A stretch of DNA of 64,000 bases, taken from Nemertoderma westbladi (Eukaryota > Animalia > Xenacoelomorpha). The position numbers and the translations under genes are program-made. Positions within the stretch are counted from its first letter, which is position 1, and every line of letters starts with the position of its first letter. Positions 34,401-60,780 of the stretch are shown piece by piece. A model generated the notes under the pieces. The model was not told the origin of the DNA and made no database searches. It worked only from the letters and a program-made list of their open reading frames with translations. The stretch is taken from assembly GCA_032718475.1 (NCBI GenBank), contig JAUCBJ010002518.1:1-64000 (forward strand), given 5' to 3'.

Positions 34401-34483
34401 GACAACATATCCATTAATATAACAACAATTAATAACAGACCGTAAACAGAAGTAAAATAATGTGGTGAACAGTCAGTATGTGT
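31470..34483 (-). repeat. ~3-kb direct repeat, copy A (leader or long LTR of outer BEL/Pao element)
   Basis: Near-identical to 55631-58633 (offset 24161). Confidence 0.9.
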
Positions 34484-38897: not shown

Positions 38898-41263
38898 TTA
38901 CGTTGGGGAGTCCCTAGATGTTTGTTGGATTAGGGAGGTGGTCGTGGGAAGAGTATCTTGCCTTCCATAGTTTCTGGATAGCTCTCTGTCTCTTTCTAGT
39001 AAACATAAACGACCAACTGGGCGATTGAGTTGTTGTGTTTCGAATACATTCGAAATACAGTAACTGATCTTCTCAGTCAGAAACCTATCCAATACCTTAT
39101 AAGTGGGAAGGTCTTTAATAGCATGGACCTTTTCGGATGTTATTGGAGCGGTATCACTAGCGATCTTCGTCCTGGAATAGTGATGATGGAAACATCTTTT
39201 CAGATACACGATGGCCTTACAAAGCCGATTCCAGGAGCTATAATGATTTATTGCTCTCTGCAGGAGAGGTGAGAGTCCTTGCGCGACATCTGGAGTTCCA
39301 GATTTCCAGTCTCTTCCTCTGATTTCTACAACTGATTTGTTTGTGGTGGGGGAGTTTAGATCCACAGCGTCATCTCCGGAGGTGTGTAGTACAGACTTAA
39401 ACTTAAGGTCCGATTATTTAGAGCAGCAGTAGTTCCAGTACTCCTCTATGGGAGTCCATGCTGGGCTCTAACTGCTGAGGACACCAAATCTCTGGATGGC
39501 ACATTCACAAGAATGCTACGCCGGGTTCATTGTGTCAAGTACAATGCACACATCTCCAACCAGACACTATATAACATTGGAGGTGTCTCATTGGTTCCCC
39601 CAAGCTTGACACTAGAACAAAACCGCCTCCGCTTTGCAGGACATTGCTTTCGCCGTGAGGACCAGCCAGTGCATAATCTTGTACTTTGGCAGCCTCATGG
39701 AGTGAATAAGCATGGTGGACAGCCCATGACTTTCTTGAGACGCATCTTAAAGGACACTGGCCTTAAAGATGCGGATGATCTAGCAAATGTCATGGGTGAT
39801 AGGGAGTTGTGGCGGTGCAATTTTGTTGACAAGCCGGCACAGCATTCTTAAAAATGCAGCTGCAATGCAGCATGCCGATCCTAGTAGTAGTAGTAGTAGT
39901 GTAGTACAGACAGATCTATCACGGGTTTAAATAACTTTGATTTACTCGTCCGGGTTTTAGGTTTGACTTTTTCCGCTCCCTTGGCTTGTCTAATCTCAGC
40001 CGTGGTGAGATGAGGAGGCCATTCATCCTCTTCTTTACTCAGGAAGTCGGGTCCACCTAACCAGTCTGGAGTATCTATCAGTTATTGCGGGGTTGCTCCT
40101 CTAGAGGCGATGTTGGCTGGATTAATCGTCCCAGGGCAATGTCTCCATTGATCTACATTAGAGCGACTAAGTATAATGGCTACTCTGTTGGTAACGAAGA
40201 CGCTGAACTGACAGACTTCGTTTGTTATATACTCCAGAACGAGTAAAGCATCAGTCCAATAGACAGTTTTCTCCAGTGGATAGTCAATCTGTTCTGTTAC
40301 ATTCTGGCCGATAGCTGTAGCGTATAGAGCCGCCTTTAACTCCACTCGAGGAACTCGTAATTTGTTGTTTATCAAGGCCTTAGAGGTGACCAAGGCAACT
40401 TTAATTCCATCCGGAGTTTCAACCCTCAGGTAGGCTACTATACCTATTCCCATATCGCTGGCGTCTCCAAACACATGGAGTTGATAGGAATACGTGGGGA
40501 GAACGTGACCAAAATATGAACGTAAAATCGTAAAGTTCTTGATGGATGGTAGAGAATCTTCCCATTTCATCCACTTCTTTAGTAGTTCTCCCTTAAGTGG
40601 ATCATCCCACGAGTGGTTTTCAAGCCACATTTGTTGCACCAAGCTCCGAGCGACTAATATAACTGGACTAATAAATCCCAATTGATCGAAATAAGTGCTC
40701 AGGATACTTAGACAAATCCGTTTAGTTCTAACTGGATTATCTCACTGTTTTAACTGGAAAAACAAGATATCTCTCTCCGTGTCCCATTTTAAACCAAGCG
40801 TCTTGGTTTCCGGAAGATCGTCCTTGATGAGGTCCAGATCTTTAACACCTCGGTCTTCTACCGGGATCGATTCCAGAAACTCATGGGAGTTACTAGTGAA
40901 TTTGGTTAGCCGAAATCCACCGCGTTGCAAGCACTCCACCGTTCCCTTGGCAACATCAATGGCTTCTTCCACCGATGGGAGGGACTTTAAATTGTCGTCC
41001 ATGTATATATCCCGTTTGATGTTGTCAATAACCGCTTTAGAGAAGGCATCTCGGTTGTTGTCGGCAGTTGTACGCACTACCGAACAAGCGTTCGTGGGGC
41101 TCGAGATGATCCCGAAAGCTTGGATGGTCATCCAGTACTCCACCGGTTTTCGGTTGAGGTCTCCTTCAGGCCACCACAGAAATCGTAGGCTGTCTCGATC
41201 CCTATCCAGCACCTTGACTTGTAAGAACATGCCTTCTATGTCCGAAGCGAATGCGATAGAATA
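38898..41263 (-). pseudogene. BEL/Pao pol remainder: RT, RNase H, integrase mostly deleted
   Basis: MFLQV..LRFLWW, FGIISSP, YMDD, KTLGLKWD; HVFGDAS, PRVELKAA, WTDA, WRHCPGTINPA; terminal RPVGRLCLLE; integrase core absent. Confidence 0.9.
39397..39898 (+). mobile_element. 5'-truncated RTE-clade LINE insertion
   Basis: VLLYGS..W..RMLRR..RLRFAGHCFR..DRELWR; (TAG)n tail; 13-bp TSD GTGTAGTACAGAC at 39384-39396 and 39899-39911. Confidence 0.9.
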
Positions 41264-44200
41264 TTACCGCAGTCCCAATAGTATTCCCAACAAGGATTGG
41301 AGTAAGTTGGGTCCCGGCAACAGTTCGGAGTTCAGGGATTGACCCATATAAAGGGCGGAGCCGTCAAACACTACCCGGAATTCGTTGGCTTTACCAGGCT
41401 TGGGAACGTAATGATGTGTTAGATAATACGTTCTTTCCATTATGGGTGTTTCTTCCGGAACTCGCTCCGCATATCCTTTATCAATAAATTTCTTCAGCTG
41501 GGTTCTATACATTTCCCTGGCTTGATCGTTGGCAGTAAGACGCCGATGTAGTTGCGCGATTCTCTTTTCCGCTAAAGGTCGGTTATTTATAAAGGTGGGT
41601 TCTCGCCGTCGGAATGGAAGACCAATCTCATAGCGACCTTCATCCTTCAGATAATGGGTTGTCGTTTCCTGAATCTGCTTGGCTCTCTCTTCCTCGACAG
41701 ACAAGGCTTTGTTGTAGGAATTAGGCTCTACGGCTTCTTGAGTAAAGAATCGTACGGCGTGTTCATCACGGATTTTGTTATTGTATCGATCTATCACTTC
41801 ATTTAATTCGTCATTATAAGTAAATTGTCCGCCATGTTGATCGATGAGATGGCATAGGTTGACTTGGTTTAACCAAGTTTGGGTTTTGGTGAGGAGATCG
41901 ATTATGTTTTCCTCATCATACAGTTGATTAATGTCGTCATTATCTGAGGAGTATGGAGTTCCCTCAGTTGTGGTTTCTCCCTCACTGATTTCTTCTTCCC
42001 ATTCACTCACCTGATGTACTCTCTCATTAGGGAGTCTTTCCATTAGAGTTCTACGGGAAGGTCCAGTGAAGTACCAACCTACTCTCGTTCTTCCCGCATA
42101 CGTTTGTAATGGTTGCGGTTTTTCTAATGTCTCAAGCGCTTCGTGCGCATTTTGGCCGATTAATATCTGCACCCCTGGATAGTCAGTGTTGAATCTAGGT
42201 ATATTATGTTGCTGGGTAAAATGGTCTTCATCCCAGTTGTAAGGTTCCACTTGGCTAGTAGCAAAGTTCTTTATAGCCACCATTTTTACCGACCTTACAC
42301 TATGTTCTCCTAGTTCATCCTGGGGAGTGGATAACACACCCACGTAGTAATCTGTGGCTACTGTGGATTTCCAAACCTGCATGATTCCTGAAAGGTTCAA
42401 CTTAGTTCGGAACTTGGCTTGTCCAGCAAAGATGTCTTCGGCTAGTTCTTTGTCGATGAATCTACCTGTGCTGCCGGAGTCAAGTAGGGCGTTTACTATC
42501 AGGCTCTTCCCTAGCCCATGGACTCTCAGCTGCACCACAGGAAATTCCCGGATTCCGACAGAGGAAGTTGGCGCTTTCCAAGATGGTTGTCGGTCCGGAA
42601 TAGTCAGTTTAGGATTTTCCACCTCCGATTCAGTCTCGTACGTAAGTGCTCGATACACAGCGGTGTTTATCATATAACAGGATTCATTTTCGTCGGAGAA
42701 TTCGTCCGTGTAGAATCCTTCCATCTCAGAACTGTGGTCAGTGTCGATCACATCACTGAATTGGACATGTAGTTCAGGCTCACTTACCTGACTCGTGCGG
42801 GTTCTGTCAAATTCTGTGTGCAGCAAGATGTGATGTTTCGCGCCGCACTTAGCACACCTCGCGTCTGAGTAACAGGTCCGTCGTTGGTGTCCTCGTCTGA
42901 GGCAATTATAACACAACCGCTTATCCCACATGACATCACGTCTATCCTTAAGGGATTTCTTCAAGAATTCATCACACCCACTCAAGCGATGTGGCCCGTC
43001 GCACAATGCACATTTGGGTTTGATGTTACTTACTTTAACATGTGTTGTGTTGTGCACACTTGTTCTTTCCTCTGGCTTTCTTCCATGAATTCTCTTAGGA
43101 GACGTAGGAGGAGTTGTTACCTGATCTCTCCTGTCACTGGTTCGAGACTTAGATTTACTTACGTCTTTCCTCATTTTATTGACATAATAAGATCTTTCAG
43201 TGTCCTTACCGCTATTCTCCTCGTATGAGGTTTGGCTTTCGCCATCGTCCGTATAACACACTGGTGTTACCTTTCTCCTAGAAACGGGTTTTTCACTCAC
43301 CTTACTCTCTGGTGTCTTCTCTCTGGACTGCTTTAGGAGCTGTAATCTTACCTCTCCATTTAAGAATGACATAAGATCAGCCATGGTAGGGTCTCTTTGT
43401 TGCTGGTCCATCATATAGAGAACCTTGTTGTCCCAACGATTACCTACTCCACCCTTTGGCAAAATTGGCAAAGTAGATGCTACGGCTCCAACAACCATAG
43501 AACTCTGATATTCTTGAGACTTACCTAACCAATCTAGCTGTCTACAGATCTCTTGAATCTCATTGGAAAACTCTATAATCGCGCTGCTAAGAAACTTTCG
43601 GGGCGCTACTAATTTCGCATATAAATACCTAGCTATGTTAGTCCTATTACCATACCTGATGTTTAGTGTATCCCAAACTTGTCTTAATCCATCTGGATGT
43701 CCAATAAACTTTAACGCCATTAACTTGGGAGGTCCTTCCAAGCACTCGGTGAGGAATCTAAGTTTCTCTCTGTTAGATAGTACAGAGTTCTGTATGTTAT
43801 CTTTATAATATTCATTAAAAGGTAACCATTTCATCTCATATCCATTAAACTTGACGACCTCTCCCACCTTTACCGCTTGACGGGCTTCGGTTCTAGCCAT
43901 TTGACGTGTAAAACTTTCTTGAGCCATCGTATTATTTAATATCGAGTTATCGGTATATAAATTTCTCGGATTATGATCAGATCTGTATGGGATATCATTA
44001 TCAACGGGTTTATAATTACCCTTAATAGGGTTTACTATAGGAGTTTCTACTTCACTAGTAGTATAGATGCGTGTAGGCTCCACACCTTGCGCATGAAATA
44101 TTTCAGATCTAATGGGTTGACACATTGTTACATGGGGTGGTGGTATACCCATTTGTATATTTACTAATTTATCGCGCTCTAAAGCGATACTTTGTTGTAC

Positions 44201-44674
44201 TTCTTGTAACTCTAACCTACTCTCTCTCACTGTTCCCTTTAACTGCTGCACAGTACCTTCCAATTCTCGGACCTGCTGTGAAGACCTTTGTCTATGGTCT
44301 TCCAGTTGCCCGAGCAGGCGGTTCATCCCCCGCCGTCCCTTGTCCACCCACTCAACCGCTGAAGCGGGAGCCGCCAACATAGTAGCGGGGTGACGCGTAG
44401 GGACGACGGGAGACAAGTCATTTATGTCTTGCTCGGCGTCCAGGACCGGATGTGGTTCCGGGGCTTGTCTACTGGGCACAGGTAATTTAGTACTGTGCAA
44501 AGGGAATTTAGAGTTAGGTTCTGGAAGTACAGGGGTCTCCATCACCGGAGTGGCTTCCATGACAGGCCTAATTATTTCAGGCTCATCTACTATAGTAGGG
44601 AGTCTTTCTACTCTAATAATTTGGTCTGTAGGTTCTTGATTACTTAAGTCTACATTAGCTAGTTGCCTTCTCAC
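41264..44674 (-). CDS. BEL/Pao Gag-protease-RT N-terminal polyprotein segment (1136 aa open)
   Basis: KFNG..WLPF..EKLRFL..L.G gag core; three Cys/His boxes CALCDGPHRLSGC, CYNCLRRGHQRRTC, CAKCGAKHHILLH; protease ALLDSGS; YLTHH..FRVVFDGS..SLNSELLPGPNL. Confidence 0.92.
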   Translation of the reverse strand: MRRQLANVDLSNQEPTDQIIRVERLPTIVDEPEIIRPVMEATPVMETPVLPEPNSKFPLHSTKLPVPSRQAPEPHPVLDAEQDINDLSPVVPTRHPATMLAAPASAVEWVDKGRRGMNRLLGQLEDHRQRSSQQVRELEGTVQQLKGTVRESRLELQEVQQSIALERDKLVNIQMGIPPPHVTMCQPIRSEIFHAQGVEPTRIYTTSEVETPIVNPIKGNYKPVDNDIPYRSDHNPRNLYTDNSILNNTMAQESFTRQMARTEARQAVKVGEVVKFNGYEMKWLPFNEYYKDNIQNSVLSNREKLRFLTECLEGPPKLMALKFIGHPDGLRQVWDTLNIRYGNRTNIARYLYAKLVAPRKFLSSAIIEFSNEIQEICRQLDWLGKSQEYQSSMVVGAVASTLPILPKGGVGNRWDNKVLYMMDQQQRDPTMADLMSFLNGEVRLQLLKQSREKTPESKVSEKPVSRRKVTPVCYTDDGESQTSYEENSGKDTERSYYVNKMRKDVSKSKSRTSDRRDQVTTPPTSPKRIHGRKPEERTSVHNTTHVKVSNIKPKCALCDGPHRLSGCDEFLKKSLKDRRDVMWDKRLCYNCLRRGHQRRTCYSDARCAKCGAKHHILLHTEFDRTRTSQVSEPELHVQFSDVIDTDHSSEMEGFYTDEFSDENESCYMINTAVYRALTYETESEVENPKLTIPDRQPSWKAPTSSVGIREFPVVQLRVHGLGKSLIVNALLDSGSTGRFIDKELAEDIFAGQAKFRTKLNLSGIMQVWKSTVATDYYVGVLSTPQDELGEHSVRSVKMVAIKNFATSQVEPYNWDEDHFTQQHNIPRFNTDYPGVQILIGQNAHEALETLEKPQPLQTYAGRTRVGWYFTGPSRRTLMERLPNERVHQVSEWEEEISEGETTTEGTPYSSDNDDINQLYDEENIIDLLTKTQTWLNQVNLCHLIDQHGGQFTYNDELNEVIDRYNNKIRDEHAVRFFTQEAVEPNSYNKALSVEEERAKQIQETTTHYLKDEGRYEIGLPFRRREPTFINNRPLAEKRIAQLHRRLTANDQAREMYRTQLKKFIDKGYAERVPEETPIMERTYYLTHHYVPKPGKANEFRVVFDGSALYMGQSLNSELLPGPNLLQSLLGILLGLR

Positions 44675-45442
44675 CGCAGGAGGTAAATTGGGTAACTTCT
44701 GACGGTGTGGCGTTCTTCTACATCTGCTTGTATGAGATTTATTACCTTTCCCCTCGGGATCTGTTGTATCACCCTCATCGGAGGAGGTAAATCCCTGTCT
44801 TCTGGGAGTAGATTAACTCAGTATTTGCATCTGAGTAGCTGTCCTTTGTTTCTTCAAGTAATCTTGTTTCGCCTGAAGGTTCTCCAGCTCTAGTTGGGTA
44901 GTCGCTTCAGACGCCTTCTGTTCTGTCTCTGCCACTGCCGCCTTTCTTTCAGCCTCTGCAGCTGACGCCTTCCTCTCAGATTCTGCCGCTGCCTCTGCCG
45001 CTGCCGCTTTTCTTTCAGCCTCTGCAGCCGATGCCTTCCTTTCAGATTCTGCCGCTGCCACTGCCACTGCCGCTGCCGTTGCCACTGCCGCTGCCGCTGC
45101 CGCTGCCGCTGCCGCTGCCGCTGCCGCTGCCGCTGCCGCTGCCGCTGCCGCTGCCGCTGCCGCTGCCGCTTTTCTTTCAGATTCCGCAGCTGCCGCCTTC
45201 CGCTGCTGCTGACCTTCGGTCTTCTATTTGCCTTTTCTTTATCTGCTCTTCTTGGTCCATCGCTATGAGGATGCTTTCATCAAATTTAACCTGCTCCGCA
45301 GCTAATATTTCCGCATCTAACGAGTCCAACACAAATTTGGCTCCCTCACTATTAGGGTGAAGTCCAGCTAGCCGTCTCCTTAGCTCTTTGTCACCTATAA
45401 ATCGTTGATAGTCCGACAGATAGATGTCAATAGCATCCTTCT
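44675..45442 (-). pseudogene. Upstream gag portion with poly-Ala (GCGGCA)n expansion
   Basis: Frame continues from 55059 across the inner element (KPQKK|DAIDIYLSDYQRF); hexamer run at ~45050-45170; AEAERKA repeats. Confidence 0.65.
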
Positions 45443-45972
45443 TGTTAGCTTATTCAATCCCGCTAACACCCCATAAAGTTATAAGCCGATAAGCAATATT
45501 GGGAGCCACGAGATTGGGCAATTAACCAACTCGTGCCATCCCAATAAGAGTGGGAAGGAAGCACACAATAAAGGGTCAGGGGCCAAACCCCTAACCCAGA
45601 GAGTACAGGTGGAGTGAACGGGAACACTCCACGGGGCGCCAACAAGGGTATCAACCAATCAGAGGGGGGCAAGGCATCGATTAGGTAGTAATTAGGCCAA
45701 CCGTGCAATATAATCAGTAACCTATTAATCAGTAATTCAGTTATCTCAATGCAGTAGTGCTAGCATAGGTTAGTTAGTTTAGATAGGGGAGCACGGGACT
45801 TTTAGTTACCGTATCCCGCCTTCCACATATCTATATCTATATCTTATACCCATCAGTTATTATACACCAAACATCAGAACTCATTCACTGCTTTCGTTTA
45901 CTCTTTATACACGGCGGGGACGCGTAAACTAAAATACCGGATAAATCGGGATCCCTCCTGGATCCCGTCACA
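45443..45972 (+). repeat. 5' LTR
   Basis: TGTTAG..GTCACA, direct repeat of 54529-55058. Confidence 0.95.
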
Positions 45973-46078
45973 GTAACTAAAATCTAGTTGCCGCCCTAGC
46001 TAAACTGTAAAAGTAACTAAAACCAGCTGCCGCCCCAGATAAAAGCCAAACCACCAGTCACCAATCTGCAGAAGAGAG

Positions 46079-47064
46079 ATGAGCCAGTCAGGTGAATCGA
46101 CACCGCCGCGGACCCCGGACGACGATCTAACGATCCGCGAGGCCACGGCGAGACGATACGAACCCACGACGCCGGTCGATGCTACGCCGACCACGTCGAC
46201 GCACGTTGACGCCACGTCGATAACGAGCGACCCGGCGAACCAAGATGTGGGGGGTCGTCTACAAAGAGGGGACGAGTCGGGAGTCGAAAGGGAGAAAGAC
46301 GAGGTCAACGTACCGATGTCGCCGGCCAGCCACAGGCCGAGGACGACGAACGGTCCACCGGAACGGCGACGGTGGGGCCGTCGGTACGACGTCGGACCCG
46401 GAGAGATGGAGGAGAGGTCGGCGACGAGGACGTCGGGGTTTCCGATCGACTTCGACGGGCCTACAACGCGACCCGGGAACTACTAAAGGAGGCCAAGGAG
46501 GGGGCGAGGATAGACGAGGTCAGGATGACAAAGGGACTAGGTGAGTCGAACAGATACTTTGATCACCTAGTGTGTTCTGGGCAGAGAGAACTGGCCGGGG
46601 AGAGAGCGAGAGGGGTTGCCTTCGAACTGTTTGGGCTATGGGAACGTAGGGGTATGGGGCCTGGTGTAGTGTACATAGGGCCATACTTAGTCGATGCCAG
46701 GGAAGTTAAGTTAGTGGGTTGGAAGAGACATGGGGAGGGCGAATCCGAGGTTAACTCCGAGGATTCGGTCTCGTCGGTCGGAGGAAGTTCTGGGAAGCGG
46801 GGGAAAGTTAGTAGGACGGAGGGGCGACGGGAGTCCGTCGCAACCGATAAGTCTGCTACATCCTCCGCAAAAGAAAGAAGGGTGCGAGAGAGTGAACGCG
46901 TGGCGTATAAATTAGAAAAGGCGGCGGCAGAGCGGAAACAGTTAGAGGGGCAATTGAGAGAGCAAACCGCATTATTAGAGTTGGTAAGGGAGGATAGAGA
47001 GAGAACAACAGGGGCAACGGGAAACACACCAGGGAAGGTGAAAGGGCGAGAAGTGGGATATTAG
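46079..47064 (+). pseudogene. Probable gag N-terminal region, frameshifted and truncated
   Basis: Overlapping ORFs 46079-46486 and 46372-47064 right after the leader, coiled-coil-like end, cut by an LTR fragment. Confidence 0.5.
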
Positions 47065-47383
47065 CCAATGGGGGGACAGCATCGACTAGGTACAGTAATA
47101 TGGCCAACTGTGCAGTACATATATTACCTGTTGGTGCTTCCCTATTCAGTTTAGTTTACTCAGTCAGATCAGTAGGGTGGAACGGGGACTTCTGTCACCG
47201 TCCGCTACCGCCATCATACTTATTACCTGTTGTGTCATACTATACTATATATCTCAGACTATTATACCTTTATACATATTACCGAACATCAGAACTCTTT
47301 TACCTTTCACACACGGCGGGGACGCGTGGATAGAAAACCCAACGGATAAACCGGGATCCGTAGATCCCGTCACAGTGACAGAA
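47057..47383 (+). repeat. Internal partial LTR plus PBS-position motif of a sister subfamily
   Basis: Matches 1-181 and solo LTR 60990-61339 more closely than the flanking LTRs. Confidence 0.85.
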
Positions 47384-47384
47384 C

Positions 47385-49994
47385 AGATCAGATACAGGGC
47401 GCGAGGTTCGCGACATCCTAAAAGGATTCGGCTTTAACCTGACAAAATTCCAATCCAGTTCGGAAGAATTTATCAAAGCCATAGAGGACAGGAAACCAGA
47501 ATCGACCATGGATAACCCCACAACAGCCAAAGGGCAGGACATGGCGATTAAGAGAACAGAATCTCAGCAGAAGGCATTGGGAATCGTGTGGGATAGAAAG
47601 ACAGACGAACTGAAGTATCAGCTGAGCCAGGAGGGCGCAGACATCCACACAAAGAGGGGCTATGTATCGTATATAGCAAGGATATACAATCCCCTAGGCC
47701 TAGCATCCCCATTATTAGTCACGGGGAAACAGATACTCAAGAGAGTATACAAATTGAAAGATGAGTGGGACGTAGAGGTACCAGAGGAAATCAAGAAACA
47801 GTGGAGCAAGTGGACAGGAAACCTGGAGAAGATGGGAACATACAACATGCCAAGGGTGTATTTCCCGGATGGGAACATGACGAATCTGGACCTACACATG
47901 TTCTCCGACGCGTCGTTGGAAGCGTACGGAGTGGCACTCTACTTAGTACAACGAGAGGGGGCTCATAAGCCAAGGCTAGCCTTTAGCAAAGCAAAGTCAA
48001 CGCCGCCAGATTCAGCATCAGTTCCCAAGTTAGAATTGACAGCTGCGAGACTAGGAGTAAGAGCCACAGCCTACCTAGTGGATACTATTCCCAACATAGT
48101 GGAGACACACTACTGGACGGACTCCATGGTAGTGCTTGGTTGGCTACACAACGAAAAGACGAGATACCCGATGTTCGTCGCGAATAGAGTGGACGAAATA
48201 AGGGCGAGCACAGAACTGGAACTGGGGTGGCACTACTGCCCAACAGACGAGAACCCAGCGGACTTGCTGTCGAGGGGCGTGGAACGCCACACTTTCCTGA
48301 AGAAGGAAGTATTGTGGCAACATGGGCCACAATTTCTGAGCGATAGGGAGGCCTGGCCGCCGATGAGGAAGGTGGACCCGGGCTCGGAAGTAGTATCAGA
48401 AGGAGAAGAGGGAGACTCAGAGGGAGAAGAGATATACTCCCAGATGGCGAGGGAGATTAGGGACGTGCAACTGTGCAGGAAAGGAAAGGAACTGTGCGAT
48501 AACCCGACGGATAAACTCCTCAGCTACAGTTCTAGTTGGTATAAAACCAAGAAACTAGTGGCGTACTGGAGAGCCTTCGGAAATTTCCTTGCGGGAGTCG
48601 GCAAGGACAAGAAGATCAGGACAACCATAGATCTGGAAGGAGCGGCCAAGGCAGTGATCCGCTATGAACAACGGAAGAACTACGGCGACGAGGTGGAACG
48701 CGTCGGTAACCAACAGCACCTCCGACGGGATAGCGAGCTGATTACGCTGTCGCCACAACTCAATGACGACGGGATTCTAGTAATGAATTCTAGGGTGGGA
48801 TACAACAACAGCATAGTCGTACCACCGAAACCCATCATCATTCCCACAGGATCGCCAATAGTCCACCAGATTATATGGGACTCCCACAAATCGATATTGC
48901 ATGGGGGCACCAACCGAACCCTCACAGAGATAAGGAGGACCTATTGGGTCAAACAATTAAGGAAGAAGGTTAAAGTGGTAGTGGGGCAGTGCCAGACCTG
49001 CCGACGAGCGAAGAAGGAGCGAGCCATACAGGAGATGGCGCCACTACCGGCGAGTAGGGTAAGACAGCACGACCCGCCATTTACGCATTGCGGTGTGGAC
49101 ATGTTCGGGCCGATAAAGATCAAAGTGATGCGACACACGGAGAAACGCTACGGCATTATCTTCGTATGCAACAATACGCGGGCGGTAGGGATAGAACTCG
49201 CCCAAGATGCAACCGCATCAGCGTTCATTAACGCCTTGGAAAGATTTAGGGACCGCAAAGGTGGGACGATCGCAGTGATATACAGCGACAACGGCACCAA
49301 CTTTGTGGGCGCAGAGAGTGAGATGGCAGAGGCCTTGGACATCTTGGAGGGGGAAGAAGTCAGGGCAGCCATGAGACGACGACAAGTAAAGTGGGAGAGA
49401 AGGACGCCTTATGCACCACATACACTAGGATGCGTCGAGAGACTAGTGGGCAGTTCAAAGCGTCTAATGATGAAGCTAATGAATACCCACATGGTCACTG
49501 AGGACGTCTTACGGACAGTACTTGCGAAGTGCGAGGGGATCATTAATAGCAGACCGCTATATCCGGAGAATGATGACCCTGAGTCACTAGACGTGCTAAC
49601 GCCTAGCCATTTCCTGATGGAAAGGCCAGCAACCATCGATATGCGGGGTGTAGACCCAGACGACATACACTCCCGCCAAAGTTGGAAAGTCGCTAAAGCG
49701 ATAAGCGCAGAGTACTGGAGGAGGTGGGTCGAGGAATACCTACCCACCCTCCATAAGCGAAGCAAGTGGAGGAAGCCGAACAGGGAGTTAAGAGAGGGAG
49801 ATCTCGTAATCGTTACGGATGATACTATCATCAACAACCAATGGCGGTTGGCGAGAGTTGTAGGCACCTACTCCGACGAGGACGGAAGAGTCCGATCGGT
49901 AGAAGTGCGGATAGGTGGAAAGATAGGTGCGAAGGACAGAAAAACTTACAGGAGAGCTATAGGTAAATGCTGTCTATTGGAAGGGGCACCTTAG
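47385..49994 (+). CDS. BEL/Pao Pol: RT C-terminus, RNase H, integrase (5'-truncated)
   Basis: GFNLTKF, KALGIVWD, TKR..IYNPLG; HMFSDAS, PKLEL, WTDS, NPADLLSRG; H..H..CQTC zinc motif; DMFGP, SDNGTNFVG, ERLV; WRRWVEEYL. Annotated ORF starts 47508 but the frame is open upstream. Confidence 0.95.
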   Translation, partial: RSDTGREVRDILKGFGFNLTKFQSSSEEFIKAIEDRKPESTMDNPTTAKGQDMAIKRTESQQKALGIVWDRKTDELKYQLSQEGADIHTKRGYVSYIARIYNPLGLASPLLVTGKQILKRVYKLKDEWDVEVPEEIKKQWSKWTGNLEKMGTYNMPRVYFPDGNMTNLDLHMFSDASLEAYGVALYLVQREGAHKPRLAFSKAKSTPPDSASVPKLELTAARLGVRATAYLVDTIPNIVETHYWTDSMVVLGWLHNEKTRYPMFVANRVDEIRASTELELGWHYCPTDENPADLLSRGVERHTFLKKEVLWQHGPQFLSDREAWPPMRKVDPGSEVVSEGEEGDSEGEEIYSQMAREIRDVQLCRKGKELCDNPTDKLLSYSSSWYKTKKLVAYWRAFGNFLAGVGKDKKIRTTIDLEGAAKAVIRYEQRKNYGDEVERVGNQQHLRRDSELITLSPQLNDDGILVMNSRVGYNNSIVVPPKPIIIPTGSPIVHQIIWDSHKSILHGGTNRTLTEIRRTYWVKQLRKKVKVVVGQCQTCRRAKKERAIQEMAPLPASRVRQHDPPFTHCGVDMFGPIKIKVMRHTEKRYGIIFVCNNTRAVGIELAQDATASAFINALERFRDRKGGTIAVIYSDNGTNFVGAESEMAEALDILEGEEVRAAMRRRQVKWERRTPYAPHTLGCVERLVGSSKRLMMKLMNTHMVTEDVLRTVLAKCEGIINSRPLYPENDDPESLDVLTPSHFLMERPATIDMRGVDPDDIHSRQSWKVAKAISAEYWRRWVEEYLPTLHKRSKWRKPNRELREGDLVIVTDDTIINNQWRLARVVGTYSDEDGRVRSVEVRIGGKIGAKDRKTYRRAIGKCCLLEGAP

Positions 49995-50109
49995 CAAAGC
50001 TAGAGGATATTTTAGTCGTCCAAGTTTTGGACTGAGGGGGGTGGGATTGAGGGCGAGACGCCCTTCCCACAAACAAAATAATAAAATAAAATAAAAAAAA
50101 TAGTACATG

Positions 50110-50790
50110 GTAGGTACGCAGTTAGTAGGCAGAGAGTTAGTTAGAAGGTACGTAAGTACCTAGTTAGTTAGTTAGTTAGGAGGTACGTAGTACCGCCAGT
50201 TAGAGAGTTAGTTAGAGGGTACGTAAGTACCGTTAGTTAGTTAGTTAGTTAGGAGGTACATAGTACCGCCAGTTAGAGAGTTAGTTAGAGGGTACGTAAG
50301 TACCGTTAGTTAGTTAGTTAGTTAGGAGGTACATAGTACCGCCAGTTAGAGAGTTAGTTAGAGGGTACGTAAGTACCGTTAGTTAGTTAGTTAAAGAGTT
50401 AGAGGGTACGTAGTACCGATAGTTAGTTAGAAGAGTTAGAGGGTACGTAGTACCGATAGTTAGTTAGAGAGTTAGAGGGTACGTAGTACCGATAGTTAGC
50501 TAGAGAGTTAGAGGGTACGCAGTACCGATAGTTAGTTAGAAGAGTTAGAGGGTACGTAGTACCGATAATTAGTTAGAGAGTTAGAGGGTACGTAGTACCA
50601 ATAGTTAGCTAGAGAGTTAGAGGGTACGCAGTACCGATAGTTAGTTAGAGAGTTAGAGGGTACGTAGTACCGTTAGTTAGAGAGTTAGAGGGTACGTAGT
50701 ACCGATAGTTGGAGTTAGAGTTAGAGGGTACGTAGTACCGTTAGTCAGAGTTAGAGTTAGAGGGTACGTAGTACCGTTAGTTAGAAGAGA
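50110..50790 (+). repeat. Tandem repeat between pol and extra ORF (GGTACGTAGTACC core, GTTA runs)
   Basis: Roughly 20 units of ~30-40 bp. Confidence 0.9.
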
Positions 50791-51275
50791 GAGAGTAAGA
50801 GGTAAAAAGGGGTATATAAGATATAGATATTAGTTAGCAGTTAGTAGCGAGAGGGGGGCATATGAGTACAGCTGGGTAAATCGTGTGGCCACACGACGTA
50901 TACTGCTGTACCGCATAGACCCACAGGGTAGGCCAGAATGTGGATTAGAGAATAGAGTAATCCATAGGCAGTAGTAAGTTGTAGGACAGTAGAATCAAAG
51001 TAAATAAAATAAATAAATAGAATAGGGCTGAAAATTGTAAAATAGTGGCAACACAAGGGAAGTTATTCTAGAACATAATAAAAGTAACGGACAGAAATCG
51101 AAATTAGGGTGTATTTACTAGCTTCAAAATTAATTAGGAATAATTTAGGTTAAAAGGCGCAGTTAAGTAGGAAGTAGGCCATTATCGAACTGTACAGAAC
51201 ATCCTAGACACATCACTCATCTGTATTGCGCCTTGGTAAGGCACCACCTTGCAGGTGAGCGAGTGAACGTTCGGA

Positions 51276-53822
51276 ATGGCGAGTAAGTTGATCAGAAAGA
51301 GAAAGGCGGAGTCAGGAGGAAAGGAGATACTGGTGGATTTCACCGAGAGACATACGGAAGAGAAGACGAGAGGATACTACGAGAGGTTGGAAAGGGGTCA
51401 CGCGGCACGAGCGCTGCAGGATCACTTCCGGGAGGCGCACAAACAGCGGCTGGTCGGGACCTACGGGACCCCGTCGCTAGACAACGCGATCTTCCAACAC
51501 TTCCACTACGTGGTGAAAGGGGACGAGGCGAAGTTCGGGATTCCGAAATACCCGAGGGAATCACCGAGGAAGGACTGGAAAAGATTCATAGAGTCCGTCA
51601 ACAGAGGAGGATATATGATCCTAGATGACGAGGGAACCGTGGAAGACGAGGCGGGCTCGAGACGAGGAACGGCAGGGTCAGCCAGGACCATACTCCTACA
51701 TTTGGCCGCGCCAAATGGGGACATCTTCTTATTCGACCTAGGGACGTATGGGAAGAAGGACGGGCCGAAATTAGACCGATTACCGAAAGCGGTACAAGTC
51801 TTAGTAAGAGAGAAGTCGACGACGAAAGTGGGATCGGCGATTCGCGAGGACGCGGAGAGGATCATCGGTCCGGACGCCACCAACCTCCTGGATATGCAGA
51901 AAGTCTTTATGGCTATGACGGCACCGGATGGATTGGGGGTAGTCGAAAACACAGGCCAATGTGGGGCGGTGGCGATGGGCCAATTATTGGGGCTCGTATG
52001 CCACAAACCGATGGAGTGGGGGAAGTTTAGGGAAGAATACGGGGCAGAACTAGCAAACTCGCTAAAGTGGGGAGCTAGACCGGGAAAGCAGGAGGTATAT
52101 CAGTTCCGCAGGGGAGCGATAAAGGTATATCAGAAGCGATATATCCTGCAGGAGGACTGGATGATGATAAGTTTGCTTAACTTATTCATGACCATGATTA
52201 TCGAGAGGGAACCAGGGGCATTTCTGTTATCGGGATCACCCCTAAGCTACAGGAGAGCCTTTAAAGTGGCCTTTGACGGTCTGGTAGACCACCCGGGGCT
52301 GAAGGGCGAGTCGGTGTATTACAACAGCCGACATCTGGTAGACGGGGAGACAGATACACCGTATCAGAGATGGGAGCAGTTAGAGACGGATAGACGAGAA
52401 GCAAAGCGACTGGAAGAAGTCGCTAGACGGGAGAGGATAGAAGCAGAGGAGAGGGAAGAGGAGGCCAGGACACAGAGTTACGGCTTCGAGGAACAGGCGG
52501 GCCTAGACGAACTTCATTGGACTTCGTCAGGGAGTTCGGGGGAGTCTCTAGGGCGAGAATTGGGATGGACGGTGGGATCGCCGAAACAGTCGACGTCGGG
52601 GTTGCGAACGATGCCCATACCAGCGGGCGCCGAGGGCGACCAACCGCCAAGGAAGTTAAGGGAGCTAGAGGGATGGAGAGCTACGGGCGAGAGCCAAGGT
52701 GGGAAGGGACATAGTGGATCCATCGGGATACCGGGATTGGAGACACTACCAGAGGAGGACGACGACGACGAGTTCGGAGAGATACCGCCCATCGAGAGGA
52801 TAGGCCACTCGGACACGGACTGGGTTGGCGGAAGGGTGGTGACGGCCAGTGGGGCGAGGGCCTTCTGGAACAGATCCGGCAAGCGGACCTGGGTGCACGA
52901 GGAGCCGGCGATGGATTTCGCGGGGAGCACCATCAGGTTGGGCGAGCAACCGGGGACGGCACCACGGATAGTATTCGGGGAGACGATGCCCGAGAGGGGC
53001 GGAGAGATCGACGTAAACAGGGAGACCAACGTAGAGAAGTTCGCCTACCAGCGACTCCACAGACTGCAGAGATCGCTTGGGACGAAAGACGAGGTGGGAT
53101 GGGAGACATTGGTACTCGGCTGCGACTACTGTGGGAGACAGACCCATCGGGAAAGCAGCTGCCTATACCGGTTCCAACAGGGAACCTTTTGTCTCTACTG
53201 CAGAGAACCAAGCCACAGGATGGGGGCGTGTCCACGGTTGCATAACCGATGTCCAAAGTGCCACTTTCGGGGACACTACGGACGCGAGTGCGACTGGATG
53301 AACGACGAGGAGAAGTTCACAAGATTCGAGGAGTAGGCCGACGTCGGGGCCATGACGCGCCAGTGCATGAAGGCCCAGGAGTTTAAGTGGGGTTTCTTCC
53401 TTATCAATCAGGAGACTCACATGGAAATCATAAAGCGGAGGCTACCGTTTACCTACCAGGAGGTAGCAACGGCGGCGTCGTACGCTGGAGTGATGAACAC
53501 GCAAAGGTATCTGGACAGGTGGACGCCAGAGAACCGAAGGGAGTTTAGGGATTTCTTGGCGGAGCACGTACCAAAGGCAATGAAAATGATCCTATGGGAC
53601 TCCACTAGAGGGAGACAACCGGGCCATTCTGAGGGGCCACCGGCGAAGCGATATCGGGCACTAATAACACCAGCGCCCAAGGAGCCAACGACCGGGATCA
53701 GCAAGGAAGTGGCGGCGAAGGTCCGAAAGCAGAAAGCGGATGATGCCAGAGGAACGGTGATAACCAAGAAGCGGCCCAGGGAAGAGGACGCTAGGGGGAA
53801 CTACCCCCGGAGGAACAGATAG
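51276..53822 (+). CDS. Extra ORF: DEDDy (WRN/EXD/MUT-7-like) 3'-5' exonuclease + three CCHC zinc knuckles; one in-frame TAG at 53334-53336
   Basis: ILDDEG (ExoI), LLHLAA..IFLFDL..LPKAV..KVGSAIREDAERI (ExoII), NLLDMQ, QKRYILQED (ExoIII-like); CDYCGRQTHRESSC, CLYCREPSHRMGAC, CPKCHFRGHYGREC; ORF 53352-53822 is in the same frame. Confidence 0.75.
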
Positions 53823-54528
53823 GTTCCCAGAGTCGAGGGAGAGAGACTGGGACTTGGACGTGGTACGCCTGGCAGGCGCCGCGTGGGACGTACGAACTAT
53901 TAAGTACAAATTTAATTAATGCAAATAATCATATAAGTGAAATCTGTATGTACGTACGTAGTGATTAGTAATCTAGAAATATATACGTTCGGAGTAAGTA
54001 CTATAGTCATACAACCTTTCTCAATTAGCTACTGGGACTGGGGGATAACTGACTATGGCACTATGGACGAGACACCAGACAATTTCACACTTCTTGAGTG
54101 CGACGGCACGAGAGGGGGGGGAGATTCGTCAGAAGGGAAGAGACAGTCAAAGTGAGGTTGAGGGACGGAATAATAGTGCGGAGTGCGGAGAGAGTGCGGA
54201 CGCAATTCTAGTGTGGGGGGGGAGAATAAGAGGCTGAGTGAGGGACGAGGAGGTCTGAGTGTGAGAGAGTTAGGGTGAGAGTGAAGGTGAGATAGGGCGG
54301 AGGTGTTGGGGAAACAAAAGTTGCGTGAAAGGTGAGCGCGATTGGCCCGACATGAGACGCCAGGCAAACAGGGTAGCGTTATCATACCCATAGGGGGCGG
54401 CCTGGAAAGCCAAATCCGAGAAAAAAGAATTCCACCCCACACCCGATACTAGATCGGGATCCAGCGGGATTGTAGCGCACTTTTTGGTTGATGCTATCTT
54501 CTTACCGGGAAGATAGCATGGGGGGGAG

Positions 54529-55058
54529 TGTTAGCTTATTCAATCCCGCTAACACCCCATAAAGTTATAAGCCGATAAGCAATATTGGGAGCCACGAGAT
54601 TGGGCAATTAACCAACTCGTGCCATCCCAATAAGAGTGGGAAGGAAGCACACAATAAAGGGTCAGGGGCCAAACCCCTAACCCAGAGAGTACAGGTGGAG
54701 TGAACGGGAACACTCCACGGGGCGCCAACAAGGGTATCAACCAATCAGACGGGGGCAAGGCATCGATTAGGTAGTAATTAGGCCAACCGTGCAATATAAT
54801 CAGTAACCTATTAATCAGTAATTCAGTTATCTCAATGCAGAAGTGCTAGCATAGGTTAGTTAGTTTAGATAGGGGAGCACGGGACTTTTAGTTACCGTAT
54901 CCCGCCTTCCACATATCTATATCTATATCTTATACCCATCAGTTATTATACACCAAACATCAGAACTCATTCACTGCTTTCGTTTACTCTTTATACACGG
55001 CGGGGACGCGTAAACTATAATACCGGATAAATCGGGATCCCTCCTGGATCCCGTCACA
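54529..55058 (+). repeat. 3' LTR
   Basis: Direct repeat of 45443-45972, preceded by PPT GGGGGGGAG. Confidence 0.95.
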
Positions 55059-55063
55059 CTTCT

Positions 55064-55553
55064 TCTGAGGTTTCCCGGATATAACTTCGCCTTCCACCTG
55101 AGAAAAAGTAGCGACTGTTGATTCTCCGTGGGTCATGTGCTCCGTTAGCTGAACTTTCCATTGTGTCGTTCCCTGGGCTTTAAGACTTACCCGTTGGAAC
55201 CAAGTCTTTACGGCCACTTGCAACGACGTGTCTTGGCTTCTCTTCTAGGCTTCCTCAAAGGCTGAAAGGATTAGTCTGATCCGTAAAATTCGTTCTCGCA
55301 CTTGATAAAGCAGCTCTCCCTGCTCTTGAGGTCCTTGATGTTGTTGAAATAGGTGTTCCTCTAATCTCTCCAAAGAACTGAAGAATCCCTGGACATATCC
55401 TGCTGCCGACCTCTTCCATACAGCTGGATCTCTAGTGTCCCTTACTATCACCATCCTGTATAAGTCCTCCCAGGCAGCTTCCGATAAGTTAAACGGGAGT
55501 CCGGGTCCGGGGAAGTTCCATTGCGTCTCGACAATAGACCTCAGTTCCTCCAT
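55064..55553 (-). pseudogene. 5' start of outer element gag
   Basis: ORFs 55245-55553 and 54984-55223 lead into the frame that resumes at 45442. Confidence 0.55.
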
Positions 55554-55630
55554 CGTCTATCCCGCATAACTGTCCCTGGTCGATCGCTTATTTCTCGCCC
55601 AATCGATTTGATGTTCCTCCTCCACAATCA

Positions 55631-58600
55631 ATACTCTAGTGAGTACGGCCCCAGGAAGAATTAGAAGTGGATCTGGATAAACCGCTTCTGCCATCCTTGC
55701 TCCGATCTCGGGCGTCAACTCTTCAGTGTCTGAACTACTAGAGTTATCGTGCCATTGAGAAATAAGTTATCGGTTCGGGTGGTGCTGCTGTTTAACAGCT
55801 GCTTCTTGGTCCCGCTTAACTTGAGCCCTAGTGCCTATAATAGACCTATGGTGCTTTACTAGCGTAGGGTCTGATACTACTACTGTAGGGATGACCTTTC
55901 TTACAGTAGGAGGGGACTTGGACTTTGGTCTCAGATGTTCGATACTCTTATCGAGTTACAGACTGTTCTTTCTAGGAGACTATCTGACAGGGTTTGTTTT
56001 GTGTCAGCCATGATTTATTTTACAGTTGAATGCCTACTACTATAACGACAGTTAAAGTAAGTCTAGTAATTCAGTATCAACTGTAAGCCTAGTAATTAAT
56101 TACCGATACCATTACTCAGTGTAACGTGATATATATATAATATTAAAATACCGGTATATGCTTATAGTATATATATAAGTATTATTTACAGACTAGGTTC
56201 AGTCACAGAATACCGGTATATAATTTCAGCCTAAATTTATATAAATAAATATAATAAGCTTACCGTAAATACCGGTAATGTCAATTATTTAATAATAACT
56301 GAGTTTCTGAATTTTAGGGTTACTTCCCTTTACTTTATTACTGATATTAAACAGTAGTTCAACTGATATTAAGACCTAATTGATGTATGACAGGCCTACT
56401 ATTTTATAAATCTGTTTGAGTTGATTTATAAATATATATATACCCGTACAATGGGTTTTGATAATGTTTGAAATAAATGTTATTATTTCTAGATAAAGCA
56501 AAGAGTCACTACACAGAAGCTGAATGCTCTCAGTGGAGTGCTACTTGTTGGACACTAATACAGATAATTCTACTTTACTAAGTTATTTATCACTACAAAT
56601 TACTTACAATTACTAACAGGTTGAGATTACAATCTCTAAATAAACAATAAACAAGTTACACGTACAATTTTTTAGGGTAATTTTACAAGAATTCTACGAA
56701 CCAGCCTAACAAGGAGTTAGAATTTCTGGTTCTTACTAACTGACAGGAAACTATGGTAGTTGAAACCAATAAAGTAGTAGTAAGTAAGTTGCGTTGTCCA
56801 GATAAGGAAATACCACCGTCTGATGACTTATAGTCTTAAACTCTATAAGTACTACGTTATGTACCCGGAGTGTCCTTACCTAGAGGTTAATTATCGAAGC
56901 CAACCAGAGCTAACGTACCTATTAACCACGTTACAACGCAAATATACTGCCTACACACTAAATTACTTTCGGAAAGCACTGTACTCGAAACCCTAAATTA
57001 GGTACAAGTACTTATACAACAAATAACCAGCAGTTAAATATACTTGAACAGCCAAAAGAACCATGGTATCTGCTGGAGTGACCGGAGCACAAAATCACCA
57101 TTCTTTACCTACACCAAGCACCCCTGATGTAATACCGGGGTTAATTTAACTATAATGGTATGTATAACAAGCACAATTACTGTAGGAATAAACTTAGGGA
57201 ATTGGAGGTTGCGAATACTCGCATAGACTCTGAATAATAAATATTACACTACCCGTGCAGACTATTTAAACAAAACACAGACCAAATGTTGGCAGACTAC
57301 TGTCAAGCCTAAATAAACTACAGTATATGCAGACTCCAAAATGGTTAGTTAGTAGGCGTTCTAACCAAGTAGTACGACTTATTCTTTTGGGGGGGATTTA
57401 CCTTACAGCACTGGATGCCCCCACCTTCCTAACTAGCACTTTATCGGACAGACACTCTACACACACTGCAATCGCCTCAGACCTAACAACAGTTAGACAA
57501 CAATCCGGCCTACAAATTATTTATACAATCTGAGCAGGCTTACACGCCTTCTGCTCAATATTACACTTACAGATAAATAAAACTGACAGAAATAAGTAAA
57601 ATCCCAATAAAAACCAGGGCTGCAGTCCCCGATTAAATATCAAGACCTACCGGTATATAATTATCACAATCAAAATAATACTGCTGTACCTGTAAGTACC
57701 GGTTCGGGTCATTAGGCCTACAGCTTACCGTCCGACCAGTACATTCGACTTTATTGCCTACGGCGCAATAAAGAAACTAAATCTATTAATGTTCTTACCA
57801 GAACATTAGACAAAGTATATTTATTGCCTACTGTGCAATCAAGAAACTGAAATCTATTAATGTTCTTACCAGAACATTAGACAAAATATATTTATTGCCT
57901 ACTGCGCAATAAAGAACCAAATCTATTAATGTTCGTGCTTTTAGACCTTTAGAGGTTTAACCTGCCAATTTTAGTTGTCCTCTTGTTTATAAATCGACTT
58001 TAGCCTTTATCAATTACCTAGTGTACTGAAGTTACATCAGCCGAAGCCAGTCCGTGCGCGGCGTATGACCCACGGTGTGGGAGACTGGATTCGGATTCCT
58101 TGAGAGTGATTGCAGTGTAGACCTACTGTATTATTCCATTGATCGTTACTATATAATCTCTGACAAATATATTTACTTTCGGGGAAATATTAACAGTTCC
58201 TTTAGGACGTGGCGCTTTAAGTATAAAAACAGAGTTATGACTTATACTAATCAGAACTAGATGGCCACAGAGTTTCGTAAATAGCGCATTCTTTAGGAGA
58301 TGCTTTATTAACCTTCACACTACTTCAGACGACTTCACACTACTTCCCACTAGTTCGCACTAATCTGCCGACCGTCACTGAATTTGATCATATATAAGGA
58401 GGATCGCAACTGACACACGTAGGGATTATGAAATAGCATTTGATTCACACAAAACCACTATAATTTAAGTCGCAGTTGCTACCGGTAAACCTGTTCCTCC
58501 TACCTCAGTAATCAAGAAGATTGAGGGGTTTATGATTATTTATCGGTATTCTCCAAATATAACAGCAATATCCATTAATATAACAACAATTAATAACAGA

Positions 58601-58633
58601 AGTAAAATAATGCGGTGAGCAGTCAGTATGTGT
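55631..58633 (-). repeat. ~3-kb direct repeat, copy B
   Basis: Near-identical to 31470-34483. Confidence 0.9.
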
Positions 58634-58669
58634 CATCAGAAAATAGTAAAGTAAATGGGACAGACTGTC

Positions 58670-58735
58670 AACCAGACAGTCTGGCGCCAGTCAGTGGGGT
58701 CTAACTATCACCAAGCCGCCCAAGACTCTACTACT
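58670..58735 (-). repeat. Orphan short Polinton terminus
   Basis: CCAGACAGTCTGGCGCCA..AAGCCGCCCAAGACTCTACTACT, inverted match to 25773 onwards. Confidence 0.75.
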
Positions 58736-59510
58736 GACGATTTATCCTAGTGGTGTGGGTGGACGATGTATCCTAGTGGTGTGGGAGGACGATGTATCCT
58801 AGTGGTGTGGGTGGACGATGCATCCTAGTGGTGTGGACGATGTATCCTAGTGGTGTGGGTGGACGATGCATCCTAGTTGTGTGGACGATATTTCCTAGTG
58901 GTGTGGGTGGACGATGTATCCTAGTGGTGTGGGTGGACGATGTATCCTAGTGGTGTGGGTGGACGATGCATCCTAGTTGTGTGGACGATATTTCCTAGTG
59001 GTGTGGGTGGACGATGTATCCTAGTGGTGTGGGTGGACGATGTATCCTAGTGGTGTGGGTGGACGATGCATCCTAGTTGTGTGGACGATATTTCCTAGTG
59101 GTGTGGGTGGACGATGTATCCTAGTGGTGTGGGTGGACGATGTATCCTAGTGGTGTGGGTGGACGATGCATCCTAGTTGTGTGGACGATATTTCCTAGTG
59201 GTGTGGGTGGACGATGTATCCTAGTGGTGTGGGTGGACGATGTATCCTAGTGGTGTGGGTGGACGATGTATCCTAGTGGTGTGGACGATGTATCCTAGTG
59301 GTGTGGGTGGACGATGCATCCTAGTTGTGTGGACGATATTTCCTAGTGGTGTGGGTGGACGATGTATCCTAGTGGTGTGGGTGGACGATGTATCCTAGTG
59401 GTGTGGGTGGACGATGTATCCTAGTGGTGTGGACGATGTATCCTAGTGGTGTGGGTGGACGATGCATCCTAGTTGTGTGGACGATATATCCTAGTGGTGT
59501 GGGTGGACGA
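58736..59510 (+). repeat. 26/22-bp minisatellite GACGATGTATCCTAGTGGTGTG(GGTG)
   Basis: About 30 tandem units with higher-order repetition. Confidence 0.95.
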
Positions 59511-59518
59511 TGGATGGA

Positions 59519-60451
59519 TAATTTACTTTTATTTCCAAGGACTTGTCTTAATATCTCTTCTCTATTTTCCTCATTTTCCTCCATTTGTTTAATAAATTTC
59601 CGCATTTGTTTTTTGTTTACTAATATTTGTCTCAATATCTCTCTTTATTTTCATCATTCTCTTTTAAATGTTTAATAAATTTCTGTAATTTAATTTTATT
59701 TCCTCGAACTTGGGTCAATGTCGCCTCTTTATTTTCTTCATTTTCCTTCAAATGTTTAATAATTTTCCGCAATTTATTCTTATTTCCAAGTAATTGTCTC
59801 AATATTTCCTCATTATCATCATTTTCATCCTCTTCTTCACTTTCTTCATCTTCTTGTTCATAACTTTCTTTATTTTCTTGTTCCTCACTTTCTTCCTGAT
59901 CTTCACTTTCTTCACCCTCTTTCTGACCTTCACTTTTTCATCCTCTTCCTGTTCTTCACTTTCTTTACCCTCTTCATGTTCTTCACTTTCTTCATCCTCT
60001 TCTTGGTCTTCACTTTCTTCACCCTCTTCTTGACCTTCACTTTCTTCATCCTCTTCCTGATCTTCCTGATCTTCACTTTCTTCGTTCTCAACTACACTCT
60101 TTTCAACTTCATCCTGATCCTCACTATTTTCATTCTCCATCTCATCGTGCTCTTCTTCTTTATCTTTCTCACTCAAATTTTCTGCATTTTCTAGGGGCAA
60201 CTGTTTTTGTATCCCTTTCAAAATATTCATAACTTTATGAAATTTATTTTCCATTGTCTGTTTTATCTTTAATATATCACGCTCATCTCTCTTTTTCTTT
60301 TCATCTTCACTAATAATATCTTCGGATTTTTTAAATTTCTTTGATTCTGAGGATCAATTAGTTTATCCTTTCTATGTCTTTCCATATGTCGAGATAGATC
60401 GTCTTGTCTCATTTCTTTATTACAAACCAAACAACTTTCATGTCTATGCAT
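59519..60451 (-). pseudogene. Further copy of C2H2/acidic ORF, 5' part (3' part at 31293-31459)
   Basis: Paralogous to 27810-28917; broken at NKSKL by the 28-kb insert; frameshifts. Confidence 0.8.
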
Positions 60452-60780
60452 TATATAAGAATATCAATTGATAGTATTGAATTTTCGCTAAATGATTTTA
60501 CAAATTATAATTATGAGTAAAATTTTAAATTTTAAATAAACAAAACTTTTATGAAAATAAAAAAACTTTTAAAAATAAAAATATATAATGAATGGGAAAG
60601 CAGTAAACAAGGGTCTATATAGAAGAAACTTAGTTTGGCGTAGCCAATGAGAGACCAGATGCGAGTAAAGCAGCCAATGAGAGAGCAGATGCGAGTACAC
60701 GCTTAATTTCTTTTGCCGTTCTTCGTTTCAGGGGTAAAGCCCATCCGTGGTGAGATAACGCCACACTAACATAGTTAAAC

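Follow-up and report, generated by a model that had tools for sequence, protein, structure and literature searches.

A BEL/Pao family of LTR retrotransposons in Nemertoderma westbladi probably primes its minus strand with a 5′ fragment of its own transcript, an internal primer that, judging from the sequence, would probably be 33–71 nt long. The window analysed here is 64,000 nucleotides of contig JAUCBJ010002518.1, and the features described below lie on its plus strand unless stated otherwise. In one family member, element A, the PBS position reads GTAACTAAAA (45973–45982), stands directly after the 5′ LTR with no spacer and no TGG, and makes 10/10 Watson–Crick pairs with a segment inside the LTR (45800–45809), here called the slot, which is the predicted 3′ end of a self-primer. 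A first-pass annotation had reported this complementarity and a second one in a related LTR, B; all its coordinates were correct, and both 45973–45982 with 45800–45809 and 47375–47383 with 47190–47198 are exact reverse complements. Beyond that annotation, the LTR and leader contain an inner PBS copy, a stem beside the slot (P1), an outer helix and repeated PBS-like units. The most likely reading of these sequences is a self-priming that would be Tf1-like in principle but different in anatomy, with an internal primer, an upstream clamp and a decoy site.

Element A (45443–55058) is a recently inserted, defective and chimeric BEL/Pao member. Its 5′ LTR (45443–45972, TG...CA) is 99.4% identical to its 3′ LTR (54529–55058), with 3 differences per 530 nt; the 3′ LTR is directly preceded by a polypurine tract (54520–54528) and followed by the target duplication, not by a PBS. 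The 5-nt target site duplication occupies 45438–45442 and 55059–55063, and the LTR ends were set independently by the 3′ LTR, a solo LTR and the 5-nt target duplications. The reading frame at 47382–49991 is a pol fragment with the RT end, the Pao peptidase/RNase H region, integrase and DUF5641 but no RT catalytic core, and its domain matches (PF05380, E 1.6e-38; PF18701, E 2.8e-24; PF17921, E 4.3e-12) identify element A as BEL/Pao. The domains that define Belpaoviridae (Pao A17/RNase H, integrase and DUF5641, in RT-RH-IN order) are present in A, as are the TG...CA LTRs, target duplication and polypurine tract of the class, but an intact gag-PR-RT is not: A is an internally deleted chimera whose pol starts after YxDD. 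The best pol homologues of A are 28–34% identical, and the top matches of 878 and 260 homologues have PF05380. Membership of the Tf1/sushi group was considered and rejected, since the domains are those of BEL/Pao and not of a Ty3/gypsy chromovirus Pol. In order, A consists of a gag fragment, the 3′ part of a B-type LTR, nine PBS-position bases and a pol starting past the RT YxDD. Because the RT core is absent, A would have needed RT in trans, or the core was lost after insertion.

Element A is inserted in the gag of another, distantly related BEL/Pao element, which lies on the minus strand (39990–45437 and 55064–58633) and shows about 32% identity to A in the RH region. The leader of this host element measures about 2.6 kb, and the first 3 kb of the element are present again at 31465–34483 (97%). 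When it was used as a control, one AT-rich 10-nt self-match only was seen, in an element whose LTR end is not fixable. A CTGCCG/alanine-rich repeat lies in its gag region at 44902–45200, beside the insertion site of A. Elsewhere the window holds satellite-like arrays at 20900–21900, 27000–30800 and 58600–62500, with units of 11–12, 22–30, 26 and 9–27 nt and some inverted copies, and inverted repeats of 0.2–1.1 kb at 2461–3851, 11111–12209 and 18969–20129.

The perfect complement that starts at the first base after the LTR end is 10 nt long in A and 9 nt long in B, at offset 0 in both. The PBS of both thus has the property of Tf1-type elements, complementarity to a segment of the 5′ LTR directly past the LTR. 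Matches of such length arose in 4/5000 dinucleotide shuffles of the LTR for A and in 4/5000 for B. In control flanks, those of the 3′ LTR and the solo LTR, the longest complement was 5 nt, and the window-wide background was 0.96% for at least 10 nt and 1.2% for at least 9 nt. The slot/PBS complementarity is genuine, and chance is a very improbable explanation for it. Owing to the offset of 0, the 3′ C of the slot faces the base that immediately follows the terminal CA, so that extension would copy the LTR end exactly.

The type of PBS expected in BEL/Pao, 18 nt complementary to a tRNA 3′ end and starting with TGG, was not found in the A/B LTR family. The earlier statement that a TGG-type PBS is missing was borne out for A and the B insert, where TGG is absent within 60 nt past the LTR end, and needs amending for the B copy with its PBS at 173, where the first TGG stands at offset 35. 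The pairings described here could also serve regulation or packaging, as a switch between a hidden and an exposed PBS, the primer being a host RNA without a CCA end such as a tRNA half or another small RNA; we consider this improbable. The first seven bases of the B PBS resemble the complement of an aspartate tRNA anticodon loop, but neither A nor C shows this likeness when the cut is placed identically. The A and B PBSs differ, and each fits its own slot to the last base in primer register; since the PBS differs in step with the slot, a host primer would need a matching change too. Half-tRNA primers are known in Ty1/copia lineages according to the available part of PMC6317226, but Rfam and ARAGORN revealed no credible tRNA in the window, and no credible ribozyme either. 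Relaxed ARAGORN settings gave many overlapping calls that were taken as noise, and Rfam gave 0 matches to the window at gathering score and two chance matches (E 4.5 and 5.9), neither of them on the slot. A primer cut from the element's own RNA is compatible with the exact register and the step-wise change, and we retain it.

Two further LTR subfamilies bear on the pairing; where their 5′ and middle regions align best, the three types A, B and C are 67–76% alike. The LTR that had been called a sister of A turned out to be the 3′ part of a B-type LTR (46993–47374) embedded in A and not a free element, while the pairing reported for it stands. Its slot lies at 47190–47198 and its inner copy at 47326–47335, and its PBS (47375–47383) joins pol sequence, starting past the RT YxDD, within about 20 nt. 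The end of another B-type 5′ LTR occupies 1–172, with a PBS at 173–181 and further PBS-like units at 207–215 and 244–252. Type C is represented by a solo LTR with a target duplication (60781–61339), with its slot at 61116–61124, the position given earlier, and an inner copy at 61288–61297; the slot flanks in this LTR read GGAAC-x-GT, not GGGAC-x-CGT as stated. Public contigs on the solo LTR indicate an abundant family with many variants in this organism, and a slot variant of C (A>T at 61119) occurred in 3, 5 and 5 contigs in three runs from two samples.

The B-type PBS, GTGACAGAA (47375–47383, also 173–181), is the exact complement of the slot at 47190–47198. Over the nine positions shared by A and B, 18/18 slot:PBS pairs are Watson–Crick, with three two-sided changes, and non-cognate combinations of slot and PBS give 5–6/9. 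Allowing GU softens this specificity, with 8/9 for the A slot on the B PBS and 9/9 for the A slot on the C inner copy. The slot of the copy at 173 is cut by the window edge, so the slot-to-PBS covariation comes from two sequences only, A and the B insert, with three changed pairs. Within this scope the changes agree with the earlier argument that compensatory change reflects selected pairing, and C adds a partner in its inner copy. Covariation could, beside selection, come partly from copying during reverse transcription.

The inner PBS copy is present in every LTR type (starting at 45924, 47326 and 61288), each time with one extra purine at the third position; in A it occupies 45924–45934, after the 3′ strand of P1 (45913–45922), within 45913–45934. 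Across the three subfamilies, the solo LTR included, slot and inner copy are 27/27 paired (26 Watson–Crick and 1 GU) with the bulge at the same position. Five of the nine positions changed on both sides, and random 9-mers matched as well in 8, 29 and 33 of 200000 trials. The inner copy of C, GTAGATTAGA, equals the predicted C post-LTR sequence, GTGATTAGA, plus one bulged base; among the contig loose ends listed on the solo LTR, none held the bases after a C-type 5′ LTR. That the C slot finds its partner within its own LTR supports selected pairing and also reveals a second partner of the slot. The proposal of priming from the element's own RNA draws on the lack of a 3′-CCA tRNA site, the exact register and the covariation, while the model first offered for it was without this second partner. 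One of the three LTR differences of A, at 55018 in the 3′ LTR, falls in the inner copy and breaks one pair, which is consistent with a change after insertion.

The slot is flanked by further paired elements. The 5′ strand of stem P1 (45810–45820) begins at the base after the slot, pairs with 45913–45922 and is kept in B and in the solo LTR, where the first pair lacks one base on each strand. An LTR-terminal hairpin (45947–45967) has 8 bp, or 7 bp in B, with a loop that varies among subfamilies and a pair probability of 0.95–0.99. Upstream of the slot, an R segment (45775–45798) forms the 5′ strand of an outer helix whose 3′ strand is the leader (45983–46007); its outer 8 pairs have probabilities of 0.89–0.96. 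With the PBS left out, the best-pairing LTR window for the leader is just 5′ of the slot in both A (250 windows) and B (176 windows). The R-to-leader duplex has −32.9 kcal/mol for A with A (3/300 shuffles) and −39.7 kcal/mol for B with B (0/300), and the crossed combinations have −19.3 and −26.5 kcal/mol. A's outer helix alone was equalled by 74/500 shuffles, and A's leader is paired by the upstream segments of B and C as well as, or better than, by its own. A second exact PBS copy lies 40 nt downstream of the first (46013–46022), and within the leader, units of this kind recur every 34–40 nt. Past pol, a tandem array of about 18 copies of a 36-nt unit resembling the R segment (50131–50785) has 21 nt that are 90% identical to the R segment of the solo LTR. 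The 36-nt-unit array past pol is also found in the B copy (1452–1693), and its unit contains a small inverted repeat.

It is conceivable that all these complementary stretches are functionless by-products of template switching or inverted copying, and that priming is by a DNA hairpin, a protein or random RNA. The family is chimera-prone, as illustrated by the B piece in A and by the B copy at 1–1693, where gag is joined to the integrase end, and PBS-like units are repeated in the leader. However, three separate partners (PBS, inner copy and P1) follow the slot region in LTRs whose best aligned parts are only 67–76% alike, and one P1 base pair was lost as a pair in the solo LTR. We regard the by-product explanation as very unlikely and continue with self-priming.

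The B-type partial LTR and PBS (46993–47400) stand in for most of gag-PR-RT in element A. As described in the accessible text of PMC11042837, Tf1 undergoes PBS-guided, integrase-independent insertion, which the junction of B piece and pol in A recalls; a nested insertion plus deletions fits the origin of this piece too. The B copy contains, at 301–1424, a broken gag fused to the last integrase codons and is a non-autonomous derivative. At about 1693 it is cut by a fragment that we take to be LINE-like from its motif. A scan with the LTR-end pattern gave 0 matches in viral contigs and 0 in metagenome contigs, and scans for related loci with pol gave 37 and 35 pattern matches, none of them confirmed.

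Promoter motifs suggest where the RNA would begin. A motif scan detected a candidate TATA box at 45709 and an initiator-like motif (A at 45739), together spanning 45709–45742, and further initiator-like motifs in the A LTR at 45772 and 45776. TATA counterparts occur at 47120 in B and 61050 in the solo LTR. With the TATA at 45709 and an initiator-like motif 61 nt before the slot, the remark that the geometry is unlike that of Tf1 proved right. The initiator-like motifs would give primers of 71, 51 and 45 nt, or of 33–38 nt from the nearer set. Transcription would start 33–71 nt upstream of the slot's 3′ end, and a primer from such a start would be longer than the 11 nt of Tf1.

Folding models of the uncut A RNA gave two states 1.5 kcal/mol apart, with slot:inner at about 0.93 and slot:PBS at about 0.04. 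The two states have the outer helix, the end hairpin and most of P1 in common, and the PBS of the uncut RNA is in a local hairpin. In uncut RNA, slot:PBS is not predicted to be the ground state, a point against any simple view of self-priming, and the slot being kept on the inner copy in the predicted uncut RNA speaks for the switch with a host-RNA primer discussed above. The 5′ piece cut after the slot was modelled to bind the first PBS in register in both A and B. A's bare 10-mer instead bound the second PBS copy in the model, so the outer helix would set the site. Compared with shuffled sequences, the B region as a whole folded no better (z −0.9), and the solo LTR had z −2.2.

A strictly Tf1-like arrangement, with the RNA starting at or just before the slot, a 9–11 nt primer and the upstream pairing as a relic, would make slot:PBS dominate in one model: for an RNA starting at the slot its probability was 0.92 in the B insert, and in A it reached up to 0.24, in the shortest construct. 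But each of the three LTRs has its TATA 66–91 nt ahead of the slot, with no such motif at −30, the leader finds its pairing partner in the sequence just 5′ of the slot, and A's bare 10-mer prefers the second PBS copy. We think such an arrangement quite unlikely. The primer end could also be made by splicing, as a donor GT stands 0–1 nt past the slot in A, B and C. These donors fit only 2–3/6 consensus positions and their offset varies, and a splice-made primer, to which we give hardly any weight, was rejected. The slot is contiguous, so no splice junction is needed, and stem P1 explains the GT after it.

Under self-priming with an internal primer, the RNA would be a near-balanced two-state switch between slot:inner and slot:PBS, which Gag/nucleocapsid or RT within the particle would probably shift. 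A predicted cut just past the slot would free the 5′ piece as primer, the cutter most likely being the element's RNase H acting at the slot/P1 junction, by analogy with Tf1. The primer would be clamped by the outer helix and thereby steered to the first of the repeated PBS units. At the other end of the RNA, GATAAA (45940–45945) is a candidate poly(A) signal that precedes the LTR end by 29–32 nt in each subfamily, and AATAAA is absent downstream of the slot in the three LTR types. Should GATAAA act as the poly(A) signal, the slot and the inner copy would recur at the RNA 3′ end; the inner copy would then mask the 3′-end slot, which would neither compete for the PBS nor be cut.

A broader scenario is possible, although we put it forward tentatively. 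This BEL/Pao lineage may have evolved tRNA-independent priming itself, with a tRNA-sized (33–71 nt), internally cut primer and a decoy PBS in the LTR that holds the primer back until packaging and covers the duplicate at the 3′ end of the RNA. Old primer copies, written back during plus-strand synthesis, may account for the PBS repeats in the leader, and the product of an exonuclease-like ORF may remove primer bases as far as the edge of the duplex. This extra ORF in element A (51270–53336) encodes 688 aa with a possible WRN-type 3′–5′ exonuclease domain and C-terminal zinc knuckles, comprising three zinc-knuckle-like motifs, and is preceded by a TATA-like motif near 50830. Its Atlas features are 0.93–0.94 to PF01612 clusters, and all 30 named matches are PF01612. 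Pfam, phmmer and PDB searches gave no support for an exonuclease and no homologues bar one short repeat match, and the single-sequence structure model had a pLDDT of 37. The exonuclease identity is a lead only; if real, it would be an unusual cargo for BEL/Pao.

Priming by the element's own RNA has been demonstrated for Tf1, in which RNase H, cutting between bases 11 and 12, frees the first 11 nt of the RNA as primer (PMC7175516, in its accessible portion); the corresponding cut in BEL/Pao element A is a prediction. Priming of Tf1 requires a three-duplex structure, in which the flanking duplexes come from LTR sequence downstream of the primer (available sections of PMC10085805). Tj1, Tcn1 and the copia TAR lineage are predicted to be self-primed as well (excerpts of PMC4600332 and PMC6317226). 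As far as the available parts of these sources go (PMC7175516, PMC10085805, PMC4600332), A shares with Tf1/Tf2 of S. pombe, Tj1, Tosmo/Tcry and Tf1/sushi the lack of a tRNA PBS and a PBS complementary to the 5′ LTR. From the same partial texts, A also shares with the Tf1 group extra duplexes around the primer helix, one of which is an LTR-end hairpin. The Tf1 group, as presented there, consists of Ty3/gypsy chromoviruses, a different superfamily from the BEL/Pao of A. The slot is predicted to be internal in A, whereas the primer is the RNA 5′ end in Tf1. The end hairpin of A fits the 'pretzel' structure described for Tf1, but A departs from it in that its leader pairs best upstream of the slot and not downstream. 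The bulged decoy PBS in the LTR and the PBS unit repeated in the leader of A and B are likewise unlike what the accessible texts describe for Tf1.

Self-priming has been called where the LTR contains a complement to at least 10 bases starting 0–5 nt past the 5′ LTR (PMC6317226, accessible part). By this definition, which covers Tcn1 (Ty3/gypsy) and TAR/Houba/Osr-1 (Ty1/copia), A would be called self-priming and B is one base short (same portion of PMC6317226). Those elements are plant and fungal and belong to other superfamilies, and the accessible part of PMC6317226 describes no decoy copy or covariation for them. Belpaoviridae use host tRNA priming via an 18-nt PBS for tRNA-Arg or -Gly, and BEL/Pao replication is described as poorly understood (PMC8742986); the BEL/Pao element Achilles has a tRNA-Tyr PBS (available text of PMC4580426). 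Compared with these descriptions, the ICTV profile and Achilles as far as accessible, A has the same domain content and order, TG...CA LTRs, 5-nt TSD and PPT. The tRNA PBS of the described elements is absent in A, whose closest proteins are only 34% identical. In the survey PMC3118150 the words primer, PBS and tRNA are absent, and the accessible portions of PMC3601003, PMC13524379, PMC3286476, PMC11042837, PMC12451622, PMC6934838 and PMC5443660 name no self-priming BEL/Pao. A claim of self-priming in BEL/Pao was not found in the literature searched, which was represented mostly by titles and the starts of abstracts, and a prior mention is possible.

If true, self-priming in BEL/Pao would add another independent origin to those of Tf1/sushi and of the copia elements predicted to self-prime, and such families would be missed by PBS-based annotation. 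A self-priming element would no longer depend on the tRNA supply of its host and would escape defences based on tRNA fragments. Testable predictions for the RNA ends, unlike those for Tf1, follow from the decoy site and the internal primer.
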